Shown here one piece after another: positions 1,652 through 18,251 of a DNA stretch of 56,686 nt. The position numbers and the translations under genes were made by a program. The DNA lies in the IMG/VR virus record IMGVR_UViG_3300031578_000043, one strand, 5' to 3'. Each line of letters opens with the position of its first letter. Position 1 is the first letter of the stretch. This DNA is from a virus. The notes beneath the pieces were generated by a model. The model did not search any database and was not told the origin of the DNA. It saw only the letters and a program-made list of their open reading frames with translations.

Positions 1652-2013
1652 AAAATCGTCAACGTGGCGTCATCACTCTTTTGATGGCCGCTGCCCTAGC
1701 CAGCGCAGCGACCTATGTCCTTGTTCCCCGGAAATTCGATCCGGGGGAGTACGGCTACTATGTGGATCTGCGGGTAATGGCGCAGCACCTTGGCTGCCCA
1801 TTCGATCCTGCCGTGTACGCCGGAATGACTACCGAAACTGAACGGCTGCAGACCTGGGTCAAGTTCCGCGGTTCCAGCGATGCAAATACCGTCGCCAAGG
1901 CCGCAGGAAGCCTCCTAGACGACGCAAAGCGCGGGGACTGCCCAACGGCGGTCAAGAACCTCGAAGCAGGCTACGACCGCATCCTGACTACGCTGGCGAA
2001 GGGAAAACCATGA
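1648..2013 (+). CDS. Hypothetical protein with N-terminal signal-anchor
   Basis: 121 aa with N-terminal hydrophobic segment VITLLMAAALASAATYVLV. ATGA-coupled on both sides. Confidence 0.5.
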   Translation: MKNRQRGVITLLMAAALASAATYVLVPRKFDPGEYGYYVDLRVMAQHLGCPFDPAVYAGMTTETERLQTWVKFRGSSDANTVAKAAGSLLDDAKRGDCPTAVKNLEAGYDRILTTLAKGKP

Positions 2014-2246
2014 ACATCACCGATCTGACCGATAGCGCAGACCCGTTCATCGCGTACCTCGGCAAGCGAGCTCAAGCGGCAAAAGACGCCCACGACGCCG
2101 GGACCATGAGCGACGGCGACTACGAGGCTCAGATTACCCAACTTACCGACTTGGAGGCGCTTGGCGAGGCTTGCGGGAGCGAGGATACCAAACTGGCGCT
2201 TGCCGAGGCTGTAGGCTACCTGGCGCAGTTCCTGGCGGCAGCGTGA
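2010..2246 (+). CDS. Hypothetical acidic protein
   Basis: 78-aa ORF, ATGA overlap upstream and GTGA overlap downstream. Confidence 0.45.
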   Translation: MNITDLTDSADPFIAYLGKRAQAAKDAHDAGTMSDGDYEAQITQLTDLEALGEACGSEDTKLALAEAVGYLAQFLAAA

Positions 2247-2818
2247 GCCCACTTTCCATCTTCTCGGGGCCGTATGCGTTTCTGGCCCGGATGGGCGTTT
2301 TCTTCCTGACGCTGTTTATTGCCATAGCCTTCGGGTTCTATGAAGGCTGGAAGTGGGAGCGGCCGGCGGTGAAGGTCGCCCAGGACAAGCTGACCGCCTT
2401 TGCCGCCCAGATCAAGACCATCGGCGATGAGTCGGCCAAGACCGCCGCCGCGAAGGATTTAGCCAATCAACAATCGAAGGAGAAAGCTGATGCCGAACAC
2501 ACGAAGGATGTTGCCACTCTTGCTGCTAATTGGGCTGCTGAGTATGACCGGCTGCGCAAGTCAGCCGCAGCTAGTGCCAGTCGCGGTCCCGTGCCCAAAG
2601 TCGCCGTCAATTCCGGCCTGTCTTGCAGCGCCACCGCAAACGCAGCAATTTCTGCCGCAGTTTCAACAAGCATCGCAGGCGCTAGAGCAGCGCTTGACGA
2701 ATGCGAATCGGGTGCTCGACAGTTCCGAGACTCAGTTGCGCAGCAGCTTGAGCAAGCCGACAGGAACACAGAAGCCCTAGTCTGCGGCGTTAAATGGGCG
2801 CATAGTATAGGGCAATGA
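2243..2818 (+). CDS. i-spanin (Rz-like)
   Basis: N-terminal TM (GVFFLTLFIAIAFGFY) followed by a long charged/coiled region. Contains an embedded +1-frame lipoprotein ORF. Start is GTG 2243 (GTGA overlap) or ATG 2291. Confidence 0.7.
   Translation: MSPLSIFSGPYAFLARMGVFFLTLFIAIAFGFYEGWKWERPAVKVAQDKLTAFAAQIKTIGDESAKTAAAKDLANQQSKEKADAEHTKDVATLAANWAAEYDRLRKSAAASASRGPVPKVAVNSGLSCSATANAAISAAVSTSIAGARAALDECESGARQFRDSVAQQLEQADRNTEALVCGVKWAHSIGQ
2490..2780 (+). CDS. o-spanin (Rz1-like), fully embedded in the i-spanin gene
   Basis: MPNTRRMLPLLLLIGLLSMTGC has a lipobox, and the mature part is Pro-rich. It lies entirely within 2243..2818 in another frame, the classic embedded spanin architecture. Confidence 0.75.
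   Translation: MPNTRRMLPLLLLIGLLSMTGCASQPQLVPVAVPCPKSPSIPACLAAPPQTQQFLPQFQQASQALEQRLTNANRVLDSSETQLRSSLSKPTGTQKP
2753..2800 (+). repeat. 48-bp direct repeat, copy 1 (functional 3' end of spanin genes); partner at 3891..3938
   Basis: caagccgacaggaacacagaagcc is identical in both copies, and the remainder differs at a few positions. Confidence 0.9.
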
Positions 2819-3354
2819 AGATTTGCTCAGACTGTAAGCGCCCCCTGCTATTGGAAATGTTTAGCAGGAACGCACAATCACGTGACGGTCGCAAGAATCA
2901 ATGCCGACCGTGCGCCAAAATTGCTTATCAAAGATGGATCGCTATTAACAAAGAAGTTCGTAATGAAAGTGCGTCCAAATGGAGAAAAGCTAATTCAGGA
3001 AAGCAACGGTTATATGACAAAAAGTGGAAAGCAAATAATCCTGACAGCTTAAAAAAACAGAGGGCTAAATGGCAGTCTGAAAACAAGCCCCACTTGGCGG
3101 AAAGAACCGCGCGTTATCGAGCAAAAGTTAGAAACGCATCTCCAGCATGGTCAAATATATTCTTCATCAAGGAAGCCTATAGCCTAGCATCAATTCGGTC
3201 TCTAGCTACCGGCATTGAGTATGAAGTGGATCATATCGTACCGATAGTAAGCGGCTTGGTCTGCGGATTGCATGTAGAACATAACCTGCGCGTCATTGAA
3301 TCGAAGATCAATCAGGCCAAAGGGAACAGACATTGGCCCAATATGCCTCGCTGA
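2815..3354 (+). CDS. HNH homing-endonuclease-like protein
   Basis: N-terminal CxxC...CxxC, repeated KW-basic segments, and C-terminal EVDHIVPI...GLH...HNLRVIESKINQAKGN (HNH motif). Confidence 0.8.
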   Translation: MKICSDCKRPLLLEMFSRNAQSRDGRKNQCRPCAKIAYQRWIAINKEVRNESASKWRKANSGKQRLYDKKWKANNPDSLKKQRAKWQSENKPHLAERTARYRAKVRNASPAWSNIFFIKEAYSLASIRSLATGIEYEVDHIVPIVSGLVCGLHVEHNLRVIESKINQAKGNRHWPNMPR

Positions 3355-3423
3355 CAAAGGCAGCCCTAGACCTGAACGGGGCGAAGGAATGGGCAAGTAA
3401 GACATTGCGCTAAGCAAATGAAA

Positions 3424-3449
3424 AGCCCCCGAGTTGGGGGCTTAGTTTT
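3424..3449. terminator. Bidirectional rho-independent terminator
   Basis: AGCCCCC-gagtt-GGGGGCT hairpin flanked by aaaa upstream and tagtttt downstream, between convergent ORFs. Confidence 0.7.
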
Positions 3450-3470
3450 GTGCAGGCCGGAGCCGCAGGT

Positions 3471-3791
3471 TCAGGTATAAGAACTGTGGATCAGCGCAGT
3501 GCCCACACCGAGCCGCGCACCCCCGGACGCGGCGCTTGAGGGCGCGATCAGCGCGGAGCGGGCATTGCCGCCGGCGAGTTCAGGGCTTTTAACAAAGGTC
3601 ACTCTATCGGCCTGCGCCGTCGAGGGCGTACACAATCGCACGTCCATAGCGGGCATCGCGGGCATCGCGGGCATCGCGCTTTGGCTGACGGCCACGGTCT
3701 GATACTTCATAACCGTCCCCGTATCTGCCATTGCGGAAAGGCCAAACAAAGCGGCGAAGATCAACCCCGCCGCGAGCAGGAGATAACGCAT
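3471..3791 (-). CDS. Small secreted protein (moron) with AMP tripeptide repeat
   Basis: Start at ATG 3791 with AAGGAGG RBS. Signal peptide MRYLLLAAGLIFAALFGLSAMA. The 9-bp unit gcgggcatc is repeated three times and encodes (AMP)x3. Confidence 0.55.
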   Translation of the reverse strand: MRYLLLAAGLIFAALFGLSAMADTGTVMKYQTVAVSQSAMPAMPAMPAMDVRLCTPSTAQADRVTFVKSPELAGGNARSALIAPSSAASGGARLGVGTALIHSSYT

Positions 3792-3865
3792 TAAAACCTC
3801 CTTTCCTATTACCGGCAGACCGTACCGGCGCGGTTTCAAGTAGCTACTCGTTACCGAGCAATTTC

Positions 3866-3893
3866 ATTCTAAGCGATCACCGCTAAATGTCAA
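3866..3893 (-). promoter_or_regulatory. Sigma70-like promoter for the moron gene
   Basis: Minus strand reads TTGACA-N16-TAGAAT. Confidence 0.5.
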
Positions 3894-3956
3894 GCCGACA
3901 GGAACACAGAAGCCTTAGTTTGCGGGGTGAGTTGGGCGGCGCGGACATTGCATTAG
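3891..3956 (+). pseudogene. Orphan remnant of a spanin (Rz/Rz1) 3' end
   Basis: Translates in the Rz frame to QADRNTEALVCGVSWAARTLH*, compared with QADRNTEALVCGVKWAHSIGQ* for the functional copy. In the Rz1 frame it gives KPTGTQKP*, identical to the functional Rz1 end. No upstream ORF body. Confidence 0.7.
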
Positions 3957-3964
3957 AAACAGCG

Positions 3965-4213
3965 TTACTTTTTCGTTTCGTTCGTGTTTGAAATGCTGGC
4001 GAATCGCGGAATCAGAACCGCTTTGAGAATCGACAGCACCATGAATAGTCCGACGCAAGCCCAGAATCCTATGTTTTGATAGACGGGCGGTAGGAAGTAG
4101 AAGTACGTTTGGCCGATCCCGCAAACCGTCCATGTGATCCAAAAAGGGACGGCGAGACTTACGGAAAAGAAAAGGGATAAGAACCATCCTACTACCGGCA
4201 ACGCATTAAGCAT
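3965..4213 (-). CDS. Hypothetical integral membrane protein
   Basis: 82 aa with multiple hydrophobic segments. Last gene of the leftward operon. Confidence 0.5.
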   Translation of the reverse strand: MLNALPVVGWFLSLFFSVSLAVPFWITWTVCGIGQTYFYFLPPVYQNIGFWACVGLFMVLSILKAVLIPRFASISNTNETKK

Positions 4214-4224
4214 TTGACTCTCCT

Positions 4225-4677
4225 TTAGTTAGCAACGCACTGTGAGCGCCCGCGCGCATCGCGGACCCTAGATTCTTCGTTGATGCACGCCTTATGTCTA
4301 GCATGGCCGAAACCATCTAAACGAAGGTTCTCAACCGAGTCGTAGTGTTTGCAAATACTACATTTCCGCCAGTTTGCATTCCCGCATGCATCGAATGCGC
4401 GTGATCGTTGGTGCAGAATACGATGATAGTTCTCATCCTGACAAATCACGAGATCATTCGGATTAACTCGCCCTTGCTGCTCATCTACATGATGAACAAC
4501 TGACTTAACTGGAAGCGATCTACCTAGGGCGCGTTCCGCGATGATAATGTGTTCCAAAACATACCCGGACGAATCGGCCCTAGGGTGTTCTGGAATCAAT
4601 AAGGTGCGGTAGCCATTCTTTATTGACCGACCGCCGTTCCAATTTGGATTGCTCTGCGCTTTCTGTGATCGACTCAT
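4225..4677 (-). CDS. HNH endonuclease (HNH_3-like)
   Basis: GYVLEHIIIAERALGRSLPVKSVVHHVDEQ...NPNDLVICQDENYHRILH. Start at ATG 4677 with AAGGA RBS. Confidence 0.75.
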   Translation of the reverse strand: MSRSQKAQSNPNWNGGRSIKNGYRTLLIPEHPRADSSGYVLEHIIIAERALGRSLPVKSVVHHVDEQQGRVNPNDLVICQDENYHRILHQRSRAFDACGNANWRKCSICKHYDSVENLRLDGFGHARHKACINEESRVRDARGRSQCVAN

Positions 4678-13987: not shown

Positions 13988-14120
13988 GGATGGGCTTGCT
14001 GCCTTTCGCGGGACAAACGAACGAGAGTAACCGCCGGTACGCTGGCAACAGTTCCTGCTTAATTAGCACGAACGGGGTTCGGTATGGGGAGTGGTGAAGT
14101 GTCAACTTTTGGAGGAATTT

Positions 14121-14924
14121 ATGCAACTCGAACTGATTAGCGGAAATGTCAAACAAGCGATGGCCGGGGCTTCGTCGAGAGACCTGTGGCAAGTGCCTCT
14201 CGATAAACTGAACGTCATCGACGGATTCAACGTGCGCGTCGATCGCGCGGAGCACAAGGCGCATTTGCAAGGGCTCGTCGACTCGATCATGGCGAACGGC
14301 TTTTATCAGAACAAGCCGCTTTCCGGCTACGTCGCCCTGGAAGATGGCGAACAGGTGATCTACGTCACCGATGGTCATTGCCGCCTAGAAGCCGCTACCG
14401 AAGCGGTGCGGCTTGGTGCCGAAATCAAAGCCCTGCCGGTGGTGGTGAGCCCGAAAGGGACCAGCGTCGAGGATCTGACCGTCGGCCTCGTTACAAACAA
14501 TTCCGGGCATCCTCTGACGCAGTACGAAATCGGCATCGTCTGCAAAAGGCTCATCGGATTCGGATGGAATGAAAAAGAAATCGGGAAACGTCTCGGAATG
14601 CCGGCGAGCCGGGTGCGTGACTTGCTCGATTTGGTTGGCGCTCCCGCGTCGGTGCGCGATGCGGTTGCTGACGGGGCGGTTTCCGCTACCCAAGCGATTG
14701 CGACTATTAAAAAGCATGGCGAGAAGGCTGGCGAGGTATTGCGGGCGGGCGCGGCGAAGGCGAAGGCCAAGGGAAAGAAAAAAATAACACGCCGCCACAT
14801 AGAGTCTGCGCTTACGCCGAGGGCGGTAATAAAAGCACTATTGGTTTGGTACGACGCCCCCGCCGGAACGAAAAAGGAACTTGAAAACATCGTCAAATTG
14901 GCGAGAGAGTCTATTGCGCGATGA
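14121..14924 (+). CDS. ParB-like nuclease/partition-domain protein
   Basis: GGAGG RBS. N-terminal ParB/Srx-type box (VIDGFNVRV ... YVTDGHCRLEA), central HTH-like LGMPASRVRDLLDL, and a basic tail. Confidence 0.7.
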   Translation: MQLELISGNVKQAMAGASSRDLWQVPLDKLNVIDGFNVRVDRAEHKAHLQGLVDSIMANGFYQNKPLSGYVALEDGEQVIYVTDGHCRLEAATEAVRLGAEIKALPVVVSPKGTSVEDLTVGLVTNNSGHPLTQYEIGIVCKRLIGFGWNEKEIGKRLGMPASRVRDLLDLVGAPASVRDAVADGAVSATQAIATIKKHGEKAGEVLRAGAAKAKAKGKKKITRRHIESALTPRAVIKALLVWYDAPAGTKKELENIVKLARESIAR

Positions 14925-15232
14925 ATCCTTGTAGGGTATGCGGTAAGCTATTTGACGCATCCTGCTTTTCGTGCAGAGCGAGAATGGGCATGAATGGGGG
15001 TGAATTATCCAAAAATTTAGTCGCAAAATTATTTAAACTGCAAGGCGGTCAATGCGCCTGCGGATGCGGAGGCGATTTAGGGGAGGACTACCATCTGGAT
15101 CATCGTATGCCGTTGGCGCTTGGTGGTTCCAATACTGACGGGAATATGCAGTTGTTGCGGAAACGGTGCAATCTTAGGAAGGGGGCAAAACACCCTATTA
15201 AATTCATGCAAGAGAATGGGTTTTTGCTGTGA
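14921..15232 (+). CDS. HNH endonuclease (short member of the YHLDH...NMQLL family)
   Basis: DYHLDHRMPLALGGSNTDGNMQLLRKRCNLRKGAKHPIKFMQENGFLL. Paralogous C-termini at 21836..22537 and 32963..33613. Confidence 0.75.
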   Translation: MNPCRVCGKLFDASCFSCRARMGMNGGELSKNLVAKLFKLQGGQCACGCGGDLGEDYHLDHRMPLALGGSNTDGNMQLLRKRCNLRKGAKHPIKFMQENGFLL

Positions 15233-15390
15233 AAAATCCTGAAATCTGGACCGACAGCGACGGCACGAAATACCGCCTCATCAATCCTGAGATCGTGAGC
15301 TACGCGCAAAAGCCGGTGAAGATCAAAGGGCGATTGGTGGAACAGCCCAATGCGGAATTTACCATCGTGACAGCGGAGAAGGTGGAGTGA
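15229..15390 (+). CDS. Possible 53-aa protein (below track cutoff)
   Basis: GTG start in a GTGA overlap with the HNH stop, and its TGA overlaps the MTase GTG start. Hand-translated VKNPEIWTDSDGTKYRLINPEIVSYAQKPVKIKGRLVEQPNAEFTIVTAEKVE. Confidence 0.3.
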   Translation: MKNPEIWTDSDGTKYRLINPEIVSYAQKPVKIKGRLVEQPNAEFTIVTAEKVE

Positions 15391-17090
15391 GCGTGCAGAT
15401 CATTCGCGGCGACTGCCTCGACGTGCTGAAAACGCTGCCGGATGCGAGCGTGGATTCCTGCGTAACCGACCCGCCCTATGGCCTAAAATTCATGGGCAAA
15501 CTGTGGGATCACGGAATCCCTGCAGCGCCGTATTGGGTCGAGGTGCTGCGTGTCCTGAAACCCGGAGCGCACTTGCTCGCCTTTGGCGGAACGCGCACCT
15601 ATCACCGCCTAGCCTGCGCGATTGAAGATGCGGGCTTTGAGATCCGCGATCAAATCGGCTATGCGTTCGGTTCTGGTTTCCCGAAAAGTCATAATCTCGA
15701 TCGTCATCGGGGTGCGCTGTTTTGTGGATGTGGAGACAATCACCATGAGAAGCCTGGGCCTGTCGCTGGAGCAAATGAAACTGCGAAAAAAAGAGCAACA
15801 CCTGAAAGTAAAGAGGAAGCCAAACACGGAATGCGATCACTGTGGGACGAAAATATATCGGCGCCCGAATGTGCTCCGCAAGAACGCGACGAAGTGCTGC
15901 AGCCATACCTGTCAGAACCGGCTATTGGGAAATGCACACCTGCACACGCCAGCAGTGGTAGCGAAGCGCGCCAAGGCGTTTCTGGGAGACAAGAATCCAG
16001 CGTGGAAGGGCGGAGTAATTCAGCGGCATCGGCACGGGAACTATGTACAGGTCCGGTATGTGAGAGCGCCAGAATGGGCACGGCTGATGGCGAGGAAGGA
16101 CGGCTATGTGATGGAGCATCGGCTTGTGATGGCGAACCGGATAGGCCGGACTCTGCTGCGCATGGAGGTGGTTCACCACGACGATCATGCGCCGCTGAAC
16201 AACGCGACGACGAACCTGGAGTTGTGGCCGGACAATCGGAGCCACAAACTCTGGGAGCATGGCCGAATTGCGGAAGGTGCGGCCTGCCGATTATTCCATC
16301 TGGGCTAGGCACCGCCCTCAAGCCGGCATGGGAGCCCATCGTTATGGCGCGCAAGCCGCTGGTGGGGACTGTTGCGGCGAACGTCGAGCGATTTGGAACC
16401 GGCGGGCTGAATATTGAAGAGTGCAGAGTTGGAACTGCAGTCGAGACATGGCCCATTTCGCGCAGCTACGCGCCGGGCCAGATGCAGCCGGGGCATTCAG
16501 GTGAAACGCAAGGCACCGGTGATGCGCCCCCCGGCCGCTGGCCGGCGAACCTGATTCACGACGGCAGCGAGGAAGTGCTGGCATGTTTTCCTGCCAATGC
16601 CGGCGCAGCGGCCCCGGTCCACAAGCGCAACGGCGACAAGTTCCGCAACACGTTCGGCGCATTCGCTGGAGACGTCGACGAGGCAGGCAGCACATTCCAA
16701 GGCGACAGTGGAAGCGCAGCGCGGTTCTTCTACTGCGCAAAAGCCTCCCGTCAAGACAGAAACGAGGGCCTGCGAGGGCGCGACAAGAAGCTGCTGAATT
16801 GGTCTAGCGGCACGCAATCACCCGGCACATTCCAAGCGCCCGGCACCGACAGAACCAGCGAGAACCATCACCCGACCGTCAAGCCGACCGACCTGATGCG
16901 CTACCTGTGCAGGCTGGTGACGCCGAAGGGCGGGACGGTGCTTGATCCATTTATGGGCAGCGGCAGCACCGGGCGCGGCGCGATACGCGAGGGCTTCGGC
17001 TTCATTGGAATCGAGATCGACGCGGAGTATTGCGAGATCGCGTGCCTTCGCATTCATGCCGATGCGCCACTGTTTGCCGAGGTCGCATGA
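15387..17090 (+). CDS. Beta-class N6-adenine/N4-cytosine DNA methyltransferase interrupted by a ~0.6-kb insertion
   Basis: N-terminal DPPY (motif IV) then GSGFPKS. The conserved sequence resumes at GTALKPAWEPIVMARKP...GTGGLNIEECRV. C-terminal motif I VLDPFMGSGSTG. The ~200 intervening codons are low-complexity and look off-frame. Confidence 0.8.
   Translation: MSVQIIRGDCLDVLKTLPDASVDSCVTDPPYGLKFMGKLWDHGIPAAPYWVEVLRVLKPGAHLLAFGGTRTYHRLACAIEDAGFEIRDQIGYAFGSGFPKSHNLDRHRGALFCGCGDNHHEKPGPVAGANETAKKRATPESKEEAKHGMRSLWDENISAPECAPQERDEVLQPYLSEPAIGKCTPAHASSGSEARQGVSGRQESSVEGRSNSAASARELCTGPVCESARMGTADGEEGRLCDGASACDGEPDRPDSAAHGGGSPRRSCAAEQRDDEPGVVAGQSEPQTLGAWPNCGRCGLPIIPSGLGTALKPAWEPIVMARKPLVGTVAANVERFGTGGLNIEECRVGTAVETWPISRSYAPGQMQPGHSGETQGTGDAPPGRWPANLIHDGSEEVLACFPANAGAAAPVHKRNGDKFRNTFGAFAGDVDEAGSTFQGDSGSAARFFYCAKASRQDRNEGLRGRDKKLLNWSSGTQSPGTFQAPGTDRTSENHHPTVKPTDLMRYLCRLVTPKGGTVLDPFMGSGSTGRGAIREGFGFIGIEIDAEYCEIACLRIHADAPLFAEVA
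15745..16308 (+). CDS. HNH endonuclease (HNH_3-like) nested in the +1 frame inside the DNA MTase gene
   Basis: GGAG RBS 9 nt upstream of ATG 15745. CDHCG...CCSHTC zinc motif. DGYVMEHRLVMANRIGRTLLRMEVVHHDD...NLELWPDNRSH. The stop TAG sits on the Gly-Leu-Gly codons preceding the conserved GTALKP of the MTase. Confidence 0.75.
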   Translation: MRSLGLSLEQMKLRKKEQHLKVKRKPNTECDHCGTKIYRRPNVLRKNATKCCSHTCQNRLLGNAHLHTPAVVAKRAKAFLGDKNPAWKGGVIQRHRHGNYVQVRYVRAPEWARLMARKDGYVMEHRLVMANRIGRTLLRMEVVHHDDHAPLNNATTNLELWPDNRSHKLWEHGRIAEGAACRLFHLG

Positions 17091-17557
17091 GCGAAATCTT
17101 TCTTCGCAAACTAGCGAACGGCACGCTCGCGCCGGCGACCGAGGAAGATCAGGAAGCGCTGAAACGGTTCAAAATGGGCGTCGTGGTTCGGTGCGAGGTC
17201 AAGCAGGTAAGAAATTACGAGTTCATGAAAAAGTGGTTCGCCTTGGTAAATTTCGCGTTCGACCAATGGAGTGAATTTCCGATGCCCGAGTACAACGGGG
17301 AAGCAGTCCAGCCAAACAGAGACAAGTTCAGGCGGGATGTTACGATTCTCGCTGGTTATTTCCATCCGGTCGTGAATGTTCGCGGCGAGGTCCGCGTCGA
17401 GGCCGATTCGATTTCCTTTGCGAACATGACCGAGGAGATATTCGAGAAGTTGTATTCCAAAACCATCGACGTAATCCTGCAAAAAATCCTGTACCGCAAA
17501 GGCTATAGCGAGAAGCAGTTGCGGGATTTGGTTGATCAAACATTGGCGTTTTCATGA
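17087..17557 (+). CDS. DUF1367-like phage protein
   Basis: N-terminus LRKLANGTLAPATEEDQEALKRFKMG...VRNYEFMKKWFALVNFAF resembles my recollection of the DUF1367 family. ATGA-coupled. Confidence 0.5.
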   Translation: MSEIFLRKLANGTLAPATEEDQEALKRFKMGVVVRCEVKQVRNYEFMKKWFALVNFAFDQWSEFPMPEYNGEAVQPNRDKFRRDVTILAGYFHPVVNVRGEVRVEADSISFANMTEEIFEKLYSKTIDVILQKILYRKGYSEKQLRDLVDQTLAFS

Positions 17558-17988
17558 AGGGCGGTCTGCATTGGGACGAACAGCGCCTTCTGGAATTCCA
17601 GAAGCGCATAGGCGCGAGTAAGGGGCGCGTCGTTCATCTGCTGGATAAGCCGAAGCCGAACAAGCACAAAGCGATTCCGCGGGTCGTAGATGGCGTGAAG
17701 TTCGCCAGCGGTCTTGAGGCGCAGTTATGGGTCGATTATCGTCTGCTGGAAAAGGCGGGGCAGATCAGGAATCTCAGGCGGCAGGTACGATTCAGCCTGT
17801 TTGCCAACGGGGGCGAGCACATCGGGACGTACAAGGCGGATATGGTGTTCGAGGAATTGCGGGAAGGGGTCTGGAAGCGCGTCGTGAGCGATGTGAAGTC
17901 CGAACATACCCGGAACCTTCCTGCGTGGGCCAGGACGAAGAAATTGATGCTTGCCTGCCACAATATCAGCGTGAGGGAGTTGCCGTGA
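17554..17988 (+). CDS. DUF1064-like putative nuclease
   Basis: The pattern KHKAIPRVVDGVKFASGLEAQLWVDYRLLEKAGQIRNLRRQVRF...YKADMVF...VSDVKS fits the DUF1064 layout. Confidence 0.5.
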   Translation: MKGGLHWDEQRLLEFQKRIGASKGRVVHLLDKPKPNKHKAIPRVVDGVKFASGLEAQLWVDYRLLEKAGQIRNLRRQVRFSLFANGGEHIGTYKADMVFEELREGVWKRVVSDVKSEHTRNLPAWARTKKLMLACHNISVRELP

Positions 17989-18251
17989 CTGAATCCGAAT
18001 ATCTCCTTCGCGTGAAGAACTGCCGCTGCGTTATCTGCTGGTACAAACTCGGGGTGAAAACTTCGCCGTGTGACGCGCATCATGTCGGGACCGGAAACGA
18101 GCATAACGATTTCGCCACGGTTGCTCTATGCAAAGAGCATCACCAAGGCGCGACCGGGGTGCATGGGAAGCATCGCAAGGCGTTTCATTTGCTGTGGAAC
18201 ACCAGCGATATTTTACTGTTGGCGTGGACTGTGAAGGAGGTCATGCGATGA
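17985..18251 (+). CDS. Ref/DUF968-like HNH nuclease
   Basis: GTGA-coupled GTG start. CRCVICW...CDAHHV...ALCKEHHQGATGVHGKHRKAF. Confidence 0.5.
   Translation: MTESEYLLRVKNCRCVICWYKLGVKTSPCDAHHVGTGNEHNDFATVALCKEHHQGATGVHGKHRKAFHLLWNTSDILLLAWTVKEVMR

Follow-up and report, generated by a model that had tools for sequence, protein, structure and literature searches.

The viral contig IMGVR_UViG_3300031578_000043 from IMG/VR (56,686 nucleotides, hereinafter the window) carries a gene for a DNA methyltransferase (hereinafter methylase), within which a second gene, coding for an HNH endonuclease, is nested out of frame. The host gene is a single open reading frame (ORF) at 15387..17090 (+), with a GTG start at 15387 and 567 codons before the stop; as the initial annotation of this DNA had stated, it is uninterrupted, staying open across the insert that houses the nuclease. 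The Pfam model N6_N4_Mtase (PF01555) matches this ORF at 3.3e-26 in two separated stretches. The N-terminal conserved part (amino acids 1-105; 15387..15701, +) contains the DPPY motif (amino acids 28-31; 15468-15479), whose residues D28, P29, P30 and Y31 are invariant in our alignments A1 and A2, where conservation extends up to N103. The C-terminal conserved part, delineated from the same alignments (16305..17087, +), comprises the stretches GTALKPAWEPI and NxHPTVKP and motif I, DPFMGSGST (amino acids 520-528), so that motif IV (DPPY) precedes motif I (FxGxG) in the order of the beta class. An AlphaFold model of the methylase has a predicted local distance difference test score (pLDDT) above 90 in its core and over most of the length of the C-terminal part. 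The best Foldseek matches of this model (CcrM, 6pbd, 3e-10; M.BceJIV; M.MboIIA; M.RsrI) identify the protein as a beta-class N6A/N4C DNA methyltransferase with the Rossmann-like fold of such enzymes.

Alignment of 113 homologues separated the methylases into two length forms. The insertion-free homologues (n=69) have a loop of 6-10 residues (HNGxWG or xNLDGDWxGW) between GSGFPKS and GTALKP, whereas the long forms, including that of the window, have ~170-206 residues at this same conserved position, with 33 long and 69 short forms being interleaved. In the window, conserved methylase sequence ends at GSGFPKSHNLD (amino acids 96-105; 15672-15701) and restarts at GLGTALKPAWEPIVMARKP (amino acid 306 onward, ~16302); thus, the alignment with the 69 insertion-free homologues bore out the earlier observation, made on the window alone, that conservation halts after the former and resumes at about 16300. 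The inserted element, absent from these 69 close homologues, accordingly spans methylase codons 106-306 (15702..16304, +), with an uncertainty of ~10 nt at its edges and a GC content of 0.57. The extra segment of about 200 codons noticed at the outset is therefore real, but its description as low-complexity needs amending, as it is better regarded as predicted disordered: in the AlphaFold model of the methylase frame, residues 123-268 have a pLDDT below 50.

Nested in this insert is an ORF of 187 codons plus a TAG stop (15745..16308, +), in frame +1 relative to the methylase. Its ATG at 15745 is preceded, 9 nt upstream, by a Shine-Dalgarno-like GGAG (15732-15735, +; read directly from the sequence), and its TAG (16306-16308) overlaps the methylase codons Leu307 and Gly308. 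A complete HNH_3-type endonuclease with its own GGAG, ending on the codons just before GTALKP, had been claimed here; the ORF is present as described, and its product matches the PHROG family phrog_20891 ('HNH endonuclease') at 8e-16. Only 43 nt of the insert (15702-15744) lie outside this ORF, close to the ~45 nt given before. The Pfam HNH_3 model (PF13392) scores below its cut-off on the window protein (E 0.008; 16.2 bits under a cut-off of 24.8), and 31 of 34 relatives match it at E<=0.01. Two sets of diagnostic residues were recovered: an N-terminal Cys4 zinc finger (C30, C33, C52, C56; 15832..15912, +), whose columns are invariant in alignments A3 and A4, and the HNH catalytic motif (HH144-145 ... 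N153 ... N157 ... H167; 16174..16245, +), which is invariant in both 34 and 100 aligned relatives. The AlphaFold model of the HNH frame has a mean pLDDT of 86.5, and a structure search of BFVD with it recovered intron-encoded and homing HNH endonucleases of phages (from 5.5e-9), in keeping with the beta-beta-alpha-metal core of His-Me finger nucleases. Foldseek against the PDB yielded nothing significant with this model (best E=2.4), and a sequence-profile search of the PDB gave only weak zinc-ribbon matches.

In protein searches this HNH recovered ~1,100 clusters, formed at 90% identity, with E<=1e-8; among the isolated phages of the searched collection none had a close relative of it. A 127-aa protein annotated as hypothetical in an Acidobacteriaceae metagenome-assembled genome (MAG) from NCBI (P0122) is 99% identical to the window HNH, which may hint at the host of the window phage. 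Directly upstream of the GGAG lies a weak hairpin with a T-run (15694..15713, +), which could modulate internal initiation; terminator-like hairpins in a scan of 14000-17600, this one included, were no commoner than in shuffled sequence. The whole insert is additionally spanned by an antisense ORF of 238 aa (15740..16456, -), which we rejected as a third gene because the same frame is open in only ~4-5 of 81 related loci; it is probably a compositional accident.

The methylase frame across the nuclease gene

We used the HNH protein alone as a query to retrieve 80 viral loci, which together with the window give 81; as the methylase played no part in the retrieval, this sample is not biased towards open methylase frames. 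In nearly all of these loci, the HNH gene is flanked by the N- and C-terminal parts of the methylase in one frame, and wherever both are on the same strand, the HNH reads in frame +1 with respect to the N-terminal methylase part, with the sole exception of a locus with a split methylase (L017, see below). The methylase frame is free of stops through the HNH gene in 79 of the 81 loci, across GC contents of 0.34-0.67. By comparison, the third forward frame has 2-19 stops in every one of the 81 loci (12 over the HNH ORF of the window), and the reverse frames are rarely open. When the synonymous codons of each HNH gene are shuffled, 7.3 stops are expected on average in the methylase frame, and the probability of zero stops is mostly below 0.005 per locus; for the HNH of the window, 2000 such shuffles gave a mean of 4.5 stops and P(0 stops)=0.004. 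The same arrangement extends to cellular genomes: among ten bacterial or MAG contigs, which include Cupriavidus, Reyranella, Verrucomicrobia, Kiritimatiellae, Bacteroidetes, Chloroflexota and Gallionella, nine have the HNH nested with the methylase frame open. A search of 1.8 billion representative proteins further recovered 180 clusters (at 50% identity) in which the read-through peptide is part of a long ORF. On this evidence from sequence comparison, the methylase frame is kept open by selection and not by chance, which can be understood only if ribosomes translate across the element. The insert-bearing methylase itself is likewise under purifying selection, with both DPPY and FxGxG being invariant in the filled alleles of A1 and A2.

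Conservation in the methylase frame in the middle of the insert (EVLQ, EGR, DG..GR..DGA) cannot be taken as independent evidence, as it is mostly a by-product of HNH motifs such as KCCS; thus, EVLQ mirrors the KCCS of the HNH Cys4 finger, whose conserved columns generate it. A programmed frameshift fusing the methylase N-terminus to the HNH was rejected since the open stretch of HNH frame that precedes the conserved region differs in length between loci, from 3 to 149 codons.

The methylase frame nevertheless has conserved features of its own near the two ends of the insert. At the 5' end, ~10 residues into the insert and upstream of the HNH ATG, there is a CxC knuckle (C113-G-C115; 15723..15731, +), and at the 3' end, ~10 residues before GTALKP, there is a CxxCG(K/L)P knuckle (C295-G-R-C298-G-L-P; 16269..16289, +) that overlaps the tail of the HNH. 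The pair flanks the insert in 31 of 31 insert-bearing proteins and was seen in none of the listed insertion-free loops. In the AlphaFold model of the methylase frame these ends are predicted to be ordered, with a pLDDT of 78-86 at residues 101-120 and 91 at residues 291-300, while the stretch between them is disordered.

In the 3' knuckle, the T in the codon for the second Cys of the CxxC coincides with the wobble position of a glycine codon in the HNH frame, and this glycine codon is GGT in 24 of 24 sequences, as against GGT making up 9% of the glycine codons elsewhere in these HNH genes. At the first Cys, the overlapping HNH residue varies (F, I, R, L, S, C, H), yet its codon always ends in T. 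The intein-hosted relatives described below are devoid of the tail that overlaps the CxxC knuckle, from which it follows that the nuclease does not need it. This codon usage indicates that the Cys codons of the methylase frame are held by selection acting at the wobble bases of the HNH. Based on the model and on this pattern, the four cysteines (CxC ... CxxCG) probably form a zinc-binding clasp that closes the base of the otherwise floppy loop.

Mobility and hosting arrangements of the HNH lineage

Several comparisons between alleles with and without the insert bear on the mobility of the element. The flanks of the window are 73% identical to the nearest empty allele as against 67% to the nearest filled one, and the filled protein P0002 and the empty P0012 share 90% flank identity. 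At the DNA level, the loci of this last pair (L094/L095) differ by a single 504-nt block at the insertion site; in the 60 nt immediately upstream of the block, identity is down to 72%, compared to 87-98% further upstream, a pattern suggestive of a co-conversion tract or of target recoding. Across alleles, the identities of the HNH and of its flanks correlate only weakly (r=0.40). The HNH lineage is at the same time old and diverse, with identities down to 39%.

The codons for GSGFPKS just upstream of the insert (15672..15692, +) are the putative recognition region of the HNH and in the window have the recoded form ..CCG AAA AGT. The Lys-Ser of this motif is encoded by AAGTCG in 15 of 31 empty alleles but in only 1 of 31 directly filled ones (Fisher p=7e-5, counting related sequences as independent), and in 10 of 27 intein-bearing alleles; AGY codons for the serine are enriched in filled alleles, the window having AAA AGT. 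The patchy distribution, the filled/empty pair and the recoded Lys-Ser codons point to the marks expected of homing with self-immunity, and we infer that the HNH is an active nuclease with its target site at GSGFPKS.

Relatives of this HNH also occur in three other settings. First, ~30 of them sit, again out of frame (+1), inside a genuine intein between YG and SGFPKS, only a few codons upstream of the insertion site in the window. The blocks of this intein are CLSEDTEIL ... SRNHRC ... VWCxxVPxGAFVARRNGKxFVTGN, followed at the junction by S(GFPKS), and its splicing blocks match those of the LAGLIDADG intein of mycobacteriophage ShiLan gp65. Second, the HNH is found between the pieces of split methylases: in L017 (2090..3599; GC 0.33) the two parts of the methylase are separate ORFs and the HNH lies free in the space between, and in L050 (1281..3419) the HNH is antisense between two methylase fragments, of which one ends in CHC and the other begins with CPCCGKP. 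These fragment ends suggest that the knuckle can join separate methylase pieces. Third, in L087 (1152..3067), on a Curtobacterium plasmid, the methylase is intact and is followed by a free-standing HNH. In a crude clustering, the HNHs of direct insertions fall apart from those hosted in inteins, with two crossovers (L038, L054), implying that the mode of hosting has switched more than once.

The intein-hosted HNH ORFs (L061, L066-L069, L058, L077) are longer than the compact form of the direct insertions (160-190 aa): they reach ~270-310 aa by an N-terminal extension of ~100 aa and have a strong AAGGAG ~103 codons upstream of the conserved HNH region. One of the crossover loci, L038, codes for a 908-aa methylase ORF (1867..4593) with two elements, the first being the intein with a frame +1 HNH at YG/SGFPKS and the second a Ser/Thr-rich insertion inside GTALKPAFEP...ARKP, which resembles the type found in ShiLan and in Cylindrospermopsis phage Cr-LKS3 (see below). 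In L008, L044, L058 and L072, the C-terminal half of the methylase resumes in a different frame after an extra gap, ~700-1500 nt downstream of the HNH, which suggests a further intervening element in these methylase genes; L058 additionally has a second HNH-like match at 3411-3527.

Interpretation and relation to known elements

Bringing these observations together, we consider it probable, with good confidence, that the window contains a compact, non-spliced homing element, consisting of a ribosome-binding site and an HNH_3 ORF set in a variable surface loop of this orphan phage methylase, whose host frame is translated straight through while the HNH is initiated internally and the whole is copied by homing. 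Under this proposal, both the mRNA and the protein would retain the insert. The methylase frame, at -1 relative to the HNH, is stop-free, and ribosomes making the methylase would read through the insert to yield a full-length enzyme with a ~170-aa disordered loop, the base of which is probably pinned by the Cys4 zinc knuckle that the element supplies. The nuclease would be made separately from the same mRNA by internal initiation at GGAG-N9-ATG, and it would cut or nick insertion-free methylase alleles near the DNA coding for GSGFPKS, with repair then copying the element in. This is in essence the first of three possibilities raised in the initial annotation, namely a homing gene in a tolerant loop that overlaps its host, and it gains from the open frames in 79 of 81 loci, the selection at the Cys wobble bases and the disordered-loop model. 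It builds on the dual coding, the selection for an open host frame and for its Cys codons, and the patchy, partly decoupled distribution described above; it further supposes a functional read-through methylase and a zinc-bound knuckle.

Several points weigh against this reading. The methylase is an accessory gene, whose partial loss of function might be tolerated. GGAG-like motifs precede the HNH in only some relatives, and automated calls of start codons and Shine-Dalgarno sequences over the 80 loci were noisy, for which reason internal initiation is argued mainly from the GGAG-N9-ATG of the window itself; likewise, a scan of 14000-17600 detected no sigma-70-like promoter that could serve the HNH internally. 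The statistics on target recoding are weakened by the relatedness of the alleles compared. Finally, the AT-rich relatives L023/L025 and L030 (and partly L048 and L057) are without the Cys motif and still have an open frame, indicating that the clasp is not indispensable. More tentatively, we regard it as quite possible that the element brings along the means of its own tolerance in the form of a split Cys4 zinc knuckle, which would let the methylase fold without splicing and thus provide a third route beside introns and inteins. The HNH lineage would then also have moved repeatedly between four lifestyles (the stapled read-through insert, the out-of-frame position in an intein, the split gene, whose fragments the knuckle perhaps joins again as in L050, and the free-standing gene) and would record the transitions between them.

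An alternative that we deem unlikely is that the insert is translated and then removed or cut at the protein level, either by an unrecognized form of splicing or by proteolysis of the loop that leaves fragments held together by the Cys4 knuckle. The bona fide intein that hosts ~30 HNH relatives a few codons upstream, the truly split methylase of L050 with its CHC and CPCCGKP ends, and the accessibility of a ~170-aa disordered loop to a protease all favor it. However, a search of the insert for Hint/intein blocks (an N-terminal Cys/Ser, block B TxxH, a C-terminal (H)N) detected none, and such blocks are missing from the other direct insertions too; the insert begins with R106 and is followed by Gly-Thr, with no Cys, Ser or Thr nucleophile immediately after it. 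Given that the window has no Hint domain, protein splicing is not expected, and the original exclusion of an intein holds for the window despite the out-of-frame HNHs in the genuine intein. Nothing in the data, moreover, requires cleavage.

An equally improbable proposition is that the HNH is not, or is no longer, selfish and acts as a partner of the methylase, for example by attacking unmethylated DNA of a competitor or the host, with the nesting ensuring their joint inheritance. The HNH lineage occurs almost only together with this methylase family, the association is old, as judged from the divergence of the HNHs, and the free-standing HNH of L087 lies directly downstream of an intact methylase, all of which would fit a partnership. 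Such a role is harder to reconcile with the absence of the insert from closely related methylases and the weak coupling of the element and host phylogenies, with the recoding of target-adjacent codons as expected for the self-immunity of a homing element, and with the presence of the same HNH in inteins, a purely selfish arrangement.

We give little credence to the removal of the insert at the RNA level, be it through a compact or unrecognized self-splicing intron or through translational bypass, such that the mature methylase would be without the ~200 codons. HNH ORFs are frequent in phage group I introns, the BFVD neighbors of our model include the intron-encoded I-PfoP3I of phage Pf-WMP3, and the insert does lie at a conserved site of a conserved gene. 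Against this, a scan of 14500-18000 with the Rfam covariance models at E<=10 found no intron family, its four sub-threshold matches (E 0.32-9.9) being to lncRNA and snoRNA families, and no more than 43 nt lie outside the ORF. Further, an excised RNA would be under no pressure to keep the host frame stop-free or to maintain host-frame Cys codons through HNH wobble bases, and no intron signal was found in a sister element, the ShiLan domain, either (PMC11855218). Host-frame selection inside the insert thus disfavors an intron, and the compact intron suggested earlier as a second possibility is not borne out. The third, an inactivated methylase whose frame is open by chance or base composition, can be practically discounted: the moderately GC-rich insert and even the antisense ORF over it are the kind of features it would predict, but it is rejected by the shuffle statistics for the window alone, by the open frames in AT-rich as well as other loci, by the closure of the antisense frame in most of them and by the invariant catalytic motifs.

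The non-spliced homing element thus proposed has published counterparts. The 'ShiLan domain' was described in methylases of actinophages (Gosselin et al., 2023; PMC9957025) and was subsequently shown to hide an out-of-frame HNH in a stop-free host frame and to be neither an intron nor an intein, with no intron signal; that study found no ribosome-binding site for the HNH and did not test selection on the host frame statistically (Arsenault, Gosselin and Gogarten, 2025; PMC11855218). We located elements of this type in ShiLan gp65 and in Cylindrospermopsis phage Cr-LKS3, in both cases inside GTALKPxxEP...ARKP and in frame +2. Like that of the window, they have as their host a PF01555 phage orphan methylase, an HNH ORF in another frame that fills nearly the whole insert of a stop-free host frame, no intein or intron signatures, a patchy distribution suggestive of homing, and a host-frame peptide predicted to be an unstructured loop. 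They differ in their site, which we term site C as opposed to site A of the window (GFPKSxNLD to GxGTALKP, ~10 codons upstream), in their frame (+2 as against +1) and in their HNH, which is no more than a distant relative of that in the window (39% identity over 57 aa, E=1e-8); the window element further has the CxC...CxxCG knuckles and a clear GGAG, and its hosts are non-actinobacterial. On the basis of these sequence features, it is of the same kind as the ShiLan domain and yet a different element that is not orthologous to it.

A different HNH occupies the very site A of the window, also in frame +1, in at least 18 mycobacteriophages (SG4, Molly, Lamina13 and others), and in four of them GenBank annotates the HNH as nested in the methylase (Molly gp60/gp61, Lamina13 gp61/62, StellaBean gp97/98 and Applejack gp54/55). 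This SG4/Molly type shares with the window the site, the frame, the open methylase frame and CxC ... CxxCGLP flanking the insert; however, its HNH belongs to PF01844/phrog_589 and has no significant similarity to that of the window beyond the zinc-finger stretch. Its copies in the 18 or more phages are at least 99% identical, implying a recent spread, in contrast to the old and diverse family of the window.

Other homing arrangements are more distant. Like inteins with a homing endonuclease, the window element is selfish, resides in a conserved gene and is apparently translated along with its host, but it has no Hint domain; 'non-canonical' inteins with out-of-frame EndoVII-like endonucleases have been reported in other host genes, and these are not HNH_3 in methylases (bioRxiv 10.1101/2025.01.02.630785). 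The HNHs encoded by group I introns (I-HmuI, I-PfoP3I) share the nuclease fold and family and the homing logic with that of the window, which differs in being without a ribozyme and in having a host frame under selection inside the element. Gene splitting is typified by mobE in nrdA of phage Aeh1, which, as worked on by Gibb and Edgell in 2007, is reportedly a free-standing homing endonuclease gene that splits its host gene. Here too an HNH gene is housed in a conserved phage gene with neither intron nor intein involved, and the relatives L017 and L050 do split the methylase; that of the window, in contrast, is unsplit, a single ORF being kept by dual coding.

To our knowledge, homing endonuclease genes have been thought to persist in essential or conserved genes only when hidden in self-splicing introns or inteins, or else in positions between genes. 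The work on ShiLan raised a third possibility, a translated-through insert with an overprinted nuclease, from a handful of nearly identical actinophage copies. The family of the window, with its ~1,100 HNH clusters and at least 180 clusters of host proteins in several bacterial phyla, makes host-frame selection directly measurable, and the candidate Cys4 clasp and the predicted GSGFPKS target render the tolerance of a non-splicing insert experimentally tractable. The window element is thus a distinct variant of the published non-spliced, dual-coded HNH insertions, set apart by where it inserts and in which frame, by the lineage of its HNH, by the candidate Cys4 clasp and by its non-actinobacterial hosts; what is new here is that host-frame selection is shown quantitatively, that a clasp and a target site are proposed, and that the direct, intein-hosted and gene-splitting arrangements of a single HNH lineage are linked. 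It also has a bearing on annotation, as gene callers give either the long methylase or the nested HNH and rarely both.

The methylase lies in a replication and recombination module of the phage, with genes for a ParB-like protein, a small HNH/EndoVII-like protein, NinB/Orf and a Holliday-junction resolvase as its neighbors. The small HNH/EndoVII-like ORF (14921..15232, +; 103 aa) is free-standing, matches Pfam HNH (9.6e-7) and phrog_1035 (8.9e-12), lies two genes upstream of the methylase and overlaps the preceding ParB-like gene (14091..14924) by 4 nt. Within the methylase family, the homologues P0015, P0018, P0005, P0020 and P0024 have further N-terminal insertions just after DPPY (A1 columns 40-170), that of P0018 being Cys-rich (CQNCNH...CQC), which suggests that there are additional hot spots for insertion in this family.

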